In this document: positions 54,901 through 57,900 of the stretch, one piece after another
Numbering within the stretch: position 1 is the first letter of the stretch
Layout: the number at the start of each line of letters is the position of its first letter
Source of the DNA: Octopus sinensis
Taxonomy: Eukaryota
NCBI RefSeq assembly: GCF_006345805.1
Contig: NC_043005.1
Location: forward strand, 49,414,001-49,478,000
Reading direction: 5' to 3'
DNA length: 64,000 nt
Notes under the pieces: model-generated
What the model was told of the DNA's origin: nothing
What the model saw: only the letters and a program-made list of their open reading frames with translations
The model's database searches: none
Program-made: the position numbers and the translations under genes

Positions 54901-57900
54901 TATATATATATATATATGTATATATATATATATAGAGACAAGTACAGGAAAAATACCAATAGAAGTATAACTCCTCCTTAGTTGTTAATTGTTTATCACT
55001 ACTTGTTTCATGCTTTTAATGACAAGACAGGAAAACTTCACAAGACAGCAGCATCCAGAAATTTTAAAAATATAAAATTTGTGGAGAGTTAAGGCTTCAA
55101 ACAAACAAACAACACCAGAGTGGATGTACAGAAATGATTGATGAAGACAGACATTTAGGGCTGTTAGGCCAAGATGAATTGTAATGAGTAACACCTGGGA
55201 GAAATTTTGAAAGGATATAGAATAAATTGAAGTGAAAAAAGCTATCGAGAGACAAGGAAATGACGTCCGGCTAGCTATATATATATATATATAATATACA
55301 TATATATATATACATATATATATATACATATATACATATATACATATATATATACATATATATATATATATATATAATATATATATACATATATATATAT
55401 ATACATATATATATATAATATACATATATATATACTATATATACATATAATATATACATATATATATATACATATATATATACATATATATATATACATA
55501 TATATATATACATATATACATATATATATATACATATATATATACATATATATATACATATATATATATACATATATACATATTATATATATATATATAT
55601 ATACATTATACATATATATATATATATATACATATATACATAATATATATACATATATATATACATATATATATACATATATATATTATACATATATATA
55701 TATACATATATATAATACATATATATATACATATACATATATACATATATATATATATAATATATTATATATATATATAATATACATATATATAATACAT
55801 ATATATATATATATTACATATATATATATACATATATATATTATATACATATATAATAGTTATCGCCATACTAATATGGCATTCTTATAAAAATAAGAAA
55901 AAAGCTGTCCGCTTATTAGCTCCATGAGGCCATCGCCTTAAGTTAGCTATTTGATACACAAACTGTATCCATATAACCTTCGAACAAGGGAGGTCAGTCG
56001 CTCCACACTACTTTAGAGAGACTTAGTTATTTTAATATTTCTATTATTGAAAACAAGTGGATGTATTCCACCGAAACTAGGTAAATAAAACCATCGAACA
56101 GAGATTGTCGGAAGCGACACCTACTGGCTGGCTACGCTGCATTGAAAAGGGGCAATACTCCGAAACGCGTCTGTAGCTGCCGGTCAAGTAGTGTGGAGCG
56201 ACTGACCTCCCTTGTTCGAAGGTATATGGATACAGTTTGTGTATCAAATAGCTAACTTAAGGCGATGGCCTCATGGAGCTAATAAGCGGACAGCTTTTTT
56301 CTTATTTTTATAAGAATGCCATATTAGTATGGCGATAACTATTATTTTCCGGGAACGCTGCCGCTGTTCTCTTTTAGAGAGACTTAGTTATTTTAATATT
56401 TCTATTATTGAAAACAAGTGGATGTATTCCACCGAAACTAGGTAAATAAAACCATCGAACAGAGATTGTCGGAAGCGACACCTACTGGCTGGCTACACTG
56501 CATTGAAAAGGGGCAATACTCCGAAATGCGTCTGTAGCTGCCGGTCAAGTAGTGTGGAGCGACTGACCTCCCTTGTTCGAAGGTTATATGGATACAGTTT
56601 GTGTATCAAATAGCTAACTTAAGGCGATGGCCTCATGGAGCTAATAAGCGGACAGCTTTTTTCTTATTTTTATAAGAATGCCATATTAGTATGGCGATAA
56701 CTATTATATATGTATATATATATATATGTATATATATATATGTATATATGTATATGTATATATGTATATGTATATATATATGTATATATATATATGTATA
56801 TATATATATGTATATATGTATATATTATATGTATATATGTATATGTATATATTATATGTATATATATATATGTATATATAATGTATATATATATATGTAT
56901 ATATGTATATATATATATATATGTTATATATGTATATATATATATGTATATATATATATGTATATATGTATATATATATATGTATATATATATATGTATA
57001 TATATAGTATATATATATGTATTATATATGTATATATATATGTATATATGTATATATATATATGTATATATTATATGTATATATATATGTATATATATAT
57101 ATGTATATATGTATATATTATATATATATATATGTATATATGTATATATATATATGTATATATATATATGTATATATATATATGTATATATATATATGTA
57201 TATATTTATATATATATGTATATATGTATATATATATATATATGTATATATATATATATGTATATATATATATATATATATATATATATATAGCTAGCCG
57301 GACGTCATTTCCCTTGTCTCTCGATAGCTTTTTTCACTTCAATTTATTCTATATCCTTTCAAAATTTCTCCCAGGTGTTACTCATTACAATTCATCTTGG
57401 CCTAACAGCCCTAAATGTCTGTCTTCATCAATCATTTCTGTACATCCACTCTGGTGTTGTTTGTTTGTTTGAAGCCTTAACTCTCCACAAATTTTATATT
57501 TTTAAAATTTCTGGATGCTGCTGTCTTGTGAAGTTTTCCTGTCTTGTCATTAAAAGCATGAAACAAGTAGTGATAAACAATTAACAACTAAGGAGGAGTT
57601 ATACTTCTATTGGTATTTTTCCTGTACTTGTCTCTAGTTGTGTGTTTATGTATTTTTTGCTCATTGGTGTATTTTTTCATTTTTATTTATGCATATTTAT
57701 TCATATATGCATAAAATAAAATAATATTACCATACATATGATACGTACATATCTTGGCATGACTTTATTTCTGTTTTTGCTAAGTTTTCAAGTAAGACAG
57801 AACCTAGTTCATTTGATGAATCTATAAACAGAACCAATCTATTACAATAAGCACTTAAAAGTTGGTAAAGAGGTAATCTTTTATTCTGCATGGTTTGAGA

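Follow-up and report, generated by a model that had tools for sequence, protein, structure and literature searches.

Several described systems come close to the locus analysed here. Animal non-LTR retrozymes (PMC7229834; 10.64898/2026.07.22.740005) are, like the repeat at this locus, non-coding tandem units of about 350 bp with one type I hammerhead each. They also share with it the dispersal from monomer to multimer, a highly structured monomer and co-occurring Penelope-like elements, and circular RNAs are known for these related animal repeats (PMC7229834). The present repeat deviates from them in its minimal U3-A8 core and its dedicated LINE parasite; a pLTR homology was not found in the two Penelope families compared. 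Penelope hammerheads likewise have the U3-A8 covariation, G10.1-C11.1 and a short palindromic stem III, and U3-A8 is already published for about 1,300 motifs in Schistosoma Penelope elements, among them the Schistosoma mansoni variant (PMC4209133). In contrast to these, the young family described below has no open reading frame, no extra nucleotide between 9 and 10.1 and a stem II of 4 bp. Minimal hammerheads cleaved weakly even as dimers (PMC4209133), and one of nine Xenopus dimers was cleaved (10.64898/2026.07.22.740005). Insertions of Penelope-like elements have an anatomy of the same kind as found here: they stop at two internal 3' ends, which in our repeat lie 63 nt from each other, carry inverted 5' arms and use (TA)n as target (PMC8557442, PMC11167929).

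Target-specific LINEs of the Tx1 group include Tx1L in Tx1D, Keno in U2 snRNA, Tx1-Mar in Mariner-N4 and crocodilian Tx1 elements with U1 heads (PMC4494074, PMC4640811), and a figure legend of PMC4494074 names unspecified 'satellites' among the Tx1 targets. These elements resemble the LINE reported here in that they are APE-type, use a fixed site in a multicopy repeat, make a 16-17-bp duplication, insert in tandem across this duplication and have snRNA-related targets. Here, however, the target is a mobile ribozyme repeat, the lineages of the old (U1) and the new target coexist at 92-98% identity with an unaltered endonuclease hairpin, and the Tx1 label is derived from domain layout and behaviour. 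R2 in rDNA (summarised in PMC4494074 and PMC6765202) is comparable in that it is inferred to be transcribed together with its target, has precise 5' junctions and is processed by a ribozyme, but in our case the ribozyme belongs to the target and not to the element, and it would cut the 3' side too.

Retrozymes, the U3-A8 core and the targeting of transposons, satellites and snRNA genes by Tx1-type LINEs are therefore already known (PMC4494074, PMC4640811, PMC6765202), and the ribozyme repeat alone adds little new. Of interest is a pair of LINE lineages, 92-98% alike, on two unrelated targets in one genome. Our searches of openly accessible papers, repeat databases aside, turned up no LINE that targets a hammerhead repeat, let alone one whose former target lineage persists beside it. 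This pair bears on the open question of how site-specific LINEs change their targets, by the endonuclease or by target sequence carried in the RNA. Our best explanation, to which we assign a probability of about 0.65, is that a young non-coding repeat with the U3-A8 core is pasted into (TA)n by a Penelope-type reverse transcriptase and is itself the site of a LINE which moved over from U1 genes.

The hammerhead repeat and its two families

The window, that is the whole analysed stretch of 64,000 nucleotides, carries the insertion in intron 53919-59773 of a MyTH4-FERM myosin (Table 1). RA/FERM and MyTH4 exons were detected on the plus strand (Pfam, 150 plus-strand frames scanned). Since both flanking exons are on this strand, the ribozymes are sense to the host pre-mRNA, as the first-pass annotation of this DNA had claimed. 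Positions within the unit (q) are counted within 56012-56372.

Table 1. Features of the repeat insertion and its surroundings in the window
Feature	Position	Strand	Remark
Host myosin exon, upstream of intron	53861..53918	+	AG/GT; frame continues from exon 52233-52351
Upstream (TA)n array	54749..54934	+	likely other half of original target
Inverted duplicate of host flank 57293-57636	54935..55275	-	one 1-bp indel in 341 bp
Imperfect (TA)n array	55276..55855	-	mirrors 56705-57292, complementary interruptions
Inverted 5' arm, element part (q175-334), without ribozyme	55853..56013	-	2-nt microhomology at inversion point
Repeat unit 1 (q1-361), complete	56012..56372	+	56012-56345 99% identical to unit 2
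Empty LINE target site 1, GGAAGCGACACCTACTG (q99-115)	56110..56126	+	17 bp duplicated at filled copies
Hammerhead 1, type I minimal, predicted	56120..56190	+	core U3-A8 56142-56148
Repeat unit 2 (q1-334)	56373..56707	+	stops at fixed 3' site CTATTAT (56701-56707) against (TA)n
Empty LINE target site 2	56471..56487	+	same 17-bp site
Hammerhead 2, predicted	56481..56551	+	core 56503-56509, predicted cut after 56532
Imperfect (TA)n target array, 3' end	56705..57292	+	mirrored by 55276-55855
Host myosin exon, downstream of intron	59774..59890	+	brackets the element with exon 53861-53918

The locus had been annotated as a tandem retrozyme, and this class is right: the units are dispersed, non-coding (no open reading frame of at least 70 aa), arranged in tandem, within the range of 150-1000 bp and equipped with a type I hammerhead each. 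In a self-comparison of the window 56012-56345 and 56373-56707 are 99% identical. The two proposed motifs are real, with cores TTGAAAA at 56142 and 56503. Their exact distance of 361 nt holds for the cores, but the period of the repeat is 361 or 362 depending on the measuring point (one T indel). Both have the 3-8 pair, G12-A13-A14 and U16.1-H17 of a type I core, and the GUC sites after 56171 and 56532, a stem II with G10.1-C11.1 (GGGG/CTCC), the GAAA and the two additional hairpins of the unit are present as described. In hammerhead 1, stem II covers 56149-56161 and stem III 56165-56170, with the cut predicted after 56171. The palindromic stem III ACGCGT claimed for both motifs is found in this first copy, whereas the palindrome is broken in the second, which reads ATGCGT (56526-56531) because of a private change at 56527; another change is at 56497. 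ATGCGT occurs in one of 65 segments (26 loci compared) and may be a mutation or an assembly error. Stem I of both motifs is GCTGCA/TGTAGC, lengthened by about 12 further pairs. Our own structural scan of both strands of the 64-kb window found no hammerhead-like sites other than these two. The fold of the monomer 56172-56532 has a z-score of -6.0, and none of 100 shuffles was equally low. An Rfam hammerhead match was not obtained at E<=5 in 54000-59000, the 40 matches listed all being TA-repeat noise. When both motifs were cofolded at minimum energy, each folded as a monomer and no dimer formed, which is expected of such models and uninformative.

Overlooked in the first-pass annotation was a 5' arm in which 54933-56013 repeats 56547-57636 in inverted orientation. 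This 1.08-kb arm mirrors 161 bp of the element, a TA array of 590 bp and 341 bp of host flank, and in the copying of host flank the locus differs from the insertions of Penelope-like elements cited above. The interruptions of the two outer arrays (54749-54934 and 56705-57292) share one polarity and those of the middle array have the opposite one. This fits a single original array into which the element inserted, dividing it in two, and a subsequent fold-back copy rejoined via 2-nt microhomologies. The cDNA end would have folded back and copied the 3' end of the element, the TA array and the 341 bp of flank. A flank mirrored from the junction was seen at one of 28 loci compared, namely the window locus, and the fold-back 54933-57636 may be an assembly chimera. 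As RNA it would form a 1.08-kb duplex within the myosin pre-mRNA, with both ribozyme cores in a loop of 533 nt; such a duplex is a likely substrate for A-to-I editing.

The repeat family is observed directly. The copy-number check that the first-pass annotation had asked for gave 1,290 exact U3-A8 cores in the 2.7-Gb assembly and none for the control, and full-length units are 97-100% identical (40 candidates scored of 886). The repeat is not tied to myosin, and the window holds one of several hundred young insertions. All 65 young-family segments compared have U3-A8. A separate count within the young family showed no covariation at positions 3 and 8 (no C3-G8, and two C3-A8 with a single change). 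It is present in the comparison with an older homologous family, which is 60-70% alike over q100-397, has the core CTGATGA and ends at the same two 3' sites. In this family 17 of 22 segments have C3-G8 and none has U3-A8; counted by eye, the 100 listed of its 182 cores comprise 86 C3-G8, 7 U3-G8, 6 C3-A8, 1 G3-G8 and 0 U3-A8. The proposal that U3-A8 is compensatory is supported by this older family, so the covariation exists between the two families and not within the young one. The stems are sustained by compensatory changes as well: stem I is CTGTG/CACAG in the older and CTGCA/TGTAG in the young family, stem II has a G-U/G-C exchange and also a variant with A-U for G-C, and the palindrome of stem III is ATCGCGAT in the older and ACGCGT in the young family.

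A LINE in the repeat and its relatives at U1 genes

Pairs of cores 5.8 kb apart revealed a 5.35-kb LINE inside the unit (reference L039:244-5590). It encodes a zf-CCHC zinc knuckle (ORF1) as well as an APE endonuclease, a reverse transcriptase and a C-terminal zf-RVT (ORF2). This layout together with the target duplication is that of the L1 group, and from its domains and behaviour we take it to be an L1/Tx1-type LINE. The homolog search yielded no clade name; the only species-named homolog is from Argonauta (48%), which together with repeat features points to a cephalopod. A 17-bp duplication of q99-115 borders the LINE on either side, and the ribozyme is predicted to cut 45 nt downstream of this site. 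Both sites in the window are empty and about 40 other copies of the repeat carry the LINE. The site itself is directly observed: 29 of 30 3' ends and 30 of 30 5' ends fall on it among the 30 copies fetched, and by exact pattern 35 of 36 3' ends genome-wide are on target (34 fit the junction pattern, and a further one also lies at the site). The 3' end of L114 is off target. The top 37 endonuclease matches all map to ribozyme-site loci, and L105 is the 38th full-length copy. A same-strand ribozyme upstream is present in only about half of the LINE copies, as judged by eye. Two runs with other organism codes, X9 and X10, contain pieces of the LINE that are 99-100% alike; in X9 a single contig runs over the 5' junction at a depth of 959 versus 1,039 for the 5' UTR, which is a hint only.

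Older relatives of the LINE, with 88-98% identity to the ribozyme-site copies, are directly seen to sit at the 5' ends of U1 snRNA genes. Two of them begin with ATACTTACCTGGCACAG, which is nt 1-17 of this genome's U1; one lies within a nest of decayed relatives in a U1 cluster, the other between two U2 genes. The 3' end of L166 is directly followed by a whole U1 gene, another LINE-relative end in the U1 cluster reads ATACTAACCTG, and three U1-type copies are found at non-U1 sites, where their ends abut ATACTT. The U1-type is represented by a small number of decayed copies (two 5' junctions, four exact 3' junctions). From these relatives it follows that the LINE has likely switched its target recently. 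In a tree of 1,070 columns, rooted on the most diverged row, which is only 26% filled, the 24 ribozyme-site copies selected for it group together in a single clade (100/97), which lies within a set of six U1-type rows. Its successive sisters are L136 (98.1%) and L138 (95.5%), and L136, the closest U1-type copy, is without endonuclease. It is thus probable that the ribozyme-site LINE derives from U1-targeting copies.

At G000:C15:28.994-29.035 Mb decayed LINE relatives (L154-L158, 74-94%) are stacked in one orientation inside the U1 cluster, one of them just downstream of U1-like upstream sequence. L276 (G000:C2:69191792-69196976) is an 85% relative whose 5' flank is neither U1 nor the repeat; its flanks gave no Rfam match, and a third target is possible.

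The first base of the site, on which the nicked primer would end, tracks the LINE lineage. It is A in all seven copies outside the 97/99 branch and in none of the 24 5' copies of the 99/94 branch, which have G where seen; one of them has A in the 3' copy. The 1,311 empty sites have A 250 times and G 1,061 times. Neighbouring empty units also have A, so this link could reflect age or ancestry.

We suggest the following course of events. The LINE would be co-transcribed with its target repeat. The downstream ribozyme would then cut 62 nt past the LINE end and the upstream one, where present, 316 nt before the LINE, so that the RNA would carry target sequence on both sides. This sequence could pair with the nicked DNA and thereby hold the insertion to that site. 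The U1 sequence in the RNA would have played the same part for the older copies, and a single accidental insertion into the repeat would have been enough to give the LINE its new specificity, the endonuclease being little changed. Co-transcription with the target is cited as strengthening specificity (PMC4494074). L138, which carries U1 nt 1-17 at a non-U1 site, points to co-transcription with the target in the older type.

The switch could also be real and caused by the protein, that is by the substitutions N23D, M26R and L84M or by other changes in ORF2, with the ribozyme being incidental. The three residues separate the endonucleases of the two types: all 37 ribozyme-site copies compared share the reference pattern, and both U1-type copies differ from it. 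Moreover the endonuclease is usually credited with target choice (PMC4494074). However, residues 184-196 are identical in both types. They align with the loop grafted in the L1 chimera 2v0s, and this hairpin has been called crucial for target recognition by L1 (PMC1950540). Further, the U1 and repeat targets have little sequence in common in register, and L138 took U1 nt 1-17 along to its non-U1 site. A protein-caused switch therefore appears rather unlikely to us.

That the RNA rather than the protein is the main cause of the switch we regard as an even bet. More tentative, and somewhat below even odds, is the complete scheme, in which a LINE moved from U1 to a mobile hammerhead repeat with its specificity loop unchanged, inherits its specificity via ribozyme-cut read-through RNA and forms part of a three-level chain of parasites caught in mid-switch. 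If true, this would be an element which uses the ribozyme of its target to process its own RNA, and which travels with a target that is in turn propagated by Penelope machinery. With three amino-acid differences and a defined read-through of 62 nt the question of RNA versus protein is directly testable.

Repeated insertion of the LINE or amplification of composites

Repeated use of the site is observed directly: most LINE copies are at one site, independent insertions included, as is expected of a target-specific LINE. Two 5'-truncated copies retain a duplication, L128 of 17 bp and L161 of 10 bp. The two LINEs of a LINE-site-LINE tandem are distinct in both known cases, with differences at 14 of 77 informative sites in one and at 10 of 78 in the other, and across tandems and neighbouring composites the haplotypes differ at 3-34 of 56-79 sites. 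The tree of 36 LINE copies requires 11 switches of host subfamily, where 3 would be the minimum and starred branches force no fewer than 4, and a single clade of B hosts is rejected (p-AU 1e-71). The upstream and downstream halves never mix the subfamilies A and B at the 30 loci with both (by eye).

Alternatively, the LINE would have entered a repeat unit on a single occasion, after which Penelope machinery multiplied the 5.7-kb composite, so that no site-specific LINE exists. This would account for the single clade of the ribozyme-site copies, for their fixed junctions and for the fact that nearly all are full length (2 truncated versus 38 full-length copies, a ratio seldom seen in LINEs). 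Tandems of composites with arms in inverted orientation do exist, and host subfamilies cluster weakly on the LINE tree, where 2 of 200 shuffles gave as few changes and a Mantel test yielded r 0.24 (p 0.008); some co-amplification of composites is possible. Against amplification as the general explanation, one and the same LINE lineage can be found in more than one host subfamily, the repeat halves on its two sides matching each other, the truncated copies have their duplication, and tandem partners and neighbouring composites are of unlike haplotype. In addition the 82 empty arms measured have a median length of 606 bp and reach 3,569 bp at most, none being as long as a composite, so copying of whole composites should leave many truncated ones, and among the resolved composites none is truncated inside the LINE without a duplication. 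The candidates L132, L133 and L160 were dropped, as all of them end at N gaps. Haplotypes and tandems of copies that are 99% alike may be distorted by assembly. We conclude that repeated site-specific insertion is very likely and that amplification from a single entry is improbable.

At G000:C3:72.50-72.53 Mb (L037, L038, L139, L039) five neighbouring units, each filled with a LINE and of different haplotypes, are grouped around an inversion point. This cluster is either the saturation of one array or an assembly mosaic.

Mobilisation of the repeat and the host gene

Breakpoints of the repeat were collected from 45 loci, a non-random sample of best matches and chosen long arrays, and the ends are directly observed. 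The arrangement is inverted at 36 of the 45 loci. Of 81 3' ends 77 are at q33-37 or q331-338, both sites ending in CTATTAT, and a TA-rich 12-mer follows directly after 62. The 5' breakpoints are scattered, with 1 of 81 near the cut site (q155-167). This is why we reject the linear cut monomer as the main template route; 17 of 81 5' or inversion breakpoints are at q195-215 (window 56206-56226), within the block best conserved with the older family, which is possibly a pause or protein-binding site. L179 and L188 are insertions outside TA tracts with direct duplications of 12 bp and 6 bp at their ends.

The repeat thus has the anatomy of a non-autonomous Penelope-like element: its 3' ends are fixed at two positions, its 5' ends vary and are inverted, and its target is a microsatellite. 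The same genome has an intact young Penelope-type family, likewise with two 3' ends, (TA)n targets and a minimal hammerhead, whose intact copies encode a reverse transcriptase of 775 aa plus a GIY-YIG frame. There is thus little doubt for us that the repeat is mobilised by Penelope machinery. A multimeric or circular RNA would be reverse-transcribed from the two internal CTATTAT sites at (TA)n nicks, and copying from these sites would yield tandem units and inverted arms. Most copies of the intact family have C at hammerhead position 4 (CCGAAGA). A second abundant Penelope-type family (L218-L247) ends at (TA)n and has no hammerhead in the structural scan. In the two Penelope families examined no autonomous partner with shared pLTR sequence was found, and beside 55 loci of the older repeat family there is no Penelope open reading frame, bar one unrelated neighbour.

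Among 20 arrays, L172, L177, L178 and L187 have array-private substitutions common to both arms, and L169, L170, L173 and L180 have a periodicity of 2 or 4 units. Both features fit rolling-circle copying and equally a later tandem duplication. In the seven-unit array L169 (G000:C1:28192855-28195336) stem II has G-to-A in every second unit; such a two-unit period is expected if only intact ribozymes cut. Among the records listed for the sequence none is registered as RNA. Contigs from 4 of 24 listed runs were aligned to L039:129-5861. In run X1 a 392-nt contig closes on itself (depth 8.7) and run X8 has the same two joints (depth 14.6); tandem DNA explains both equally well, and the two runs are only guessed to be RNA.

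The first-pass annotation had further suggested that transcription of the myosin gene could release a 361-nt RNA and cut the intron. In its full form this reading means that a 361-nt circle is released and the intron is cut to an extent that matters for the gene. The two motifs are indeed in tandem and in sense orientation in an intron, and related repeats give circles in other animals (PMC7229834). But the genome has several hundred young insertions that are nearly identical to the window copy and occur in either orientation, stem III of the second motif in the window is altered, and distal stem I of one motif would be engaged in pairing by the 1.08-kb inverted arm. Minimal motifs are weakly active in vitro (PMC4209133), and 8 of 9 dimers tested elsewhere were uncleaved (10.64898/2026.07.22.740005). 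Release of the 361-nt RNA also fits poorly with the single breakpoint of 81 near the cut site. We consider this full reading to be quite improbable, and a meaningful effect on the myosin gene is equally doubtful.

Finally, the LINE is a young element with some intact parts and a direct physical link to the repeat, but it has hardly any chance of being the autonomous partner which mobilises the empty repeat, because the empty insertions end with CTATTAT/(TA)n and inverted arms like the Penelope elements of this genome, the LINE itself has an AGATTT end and a 17-bp duplication unlike these, and the older repeat family has the same ends but a different sequence at the LINE site.

Other traces of mobile elements and duplication are found in the same myosin gene. 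The window has at 13859-17173 on the minus strand a 99% copy of the young autonomous Penelope-type element, and at 57828-58678, in the same intron as the ribozyme repeat, the decayed 3' part of another LINE (zf-RVT match). A stretch of 62 bp of the downstream myosin exon (59781-59842) is duplicated with 97% identity in an upstream intron (47908-47968), without splice sites.
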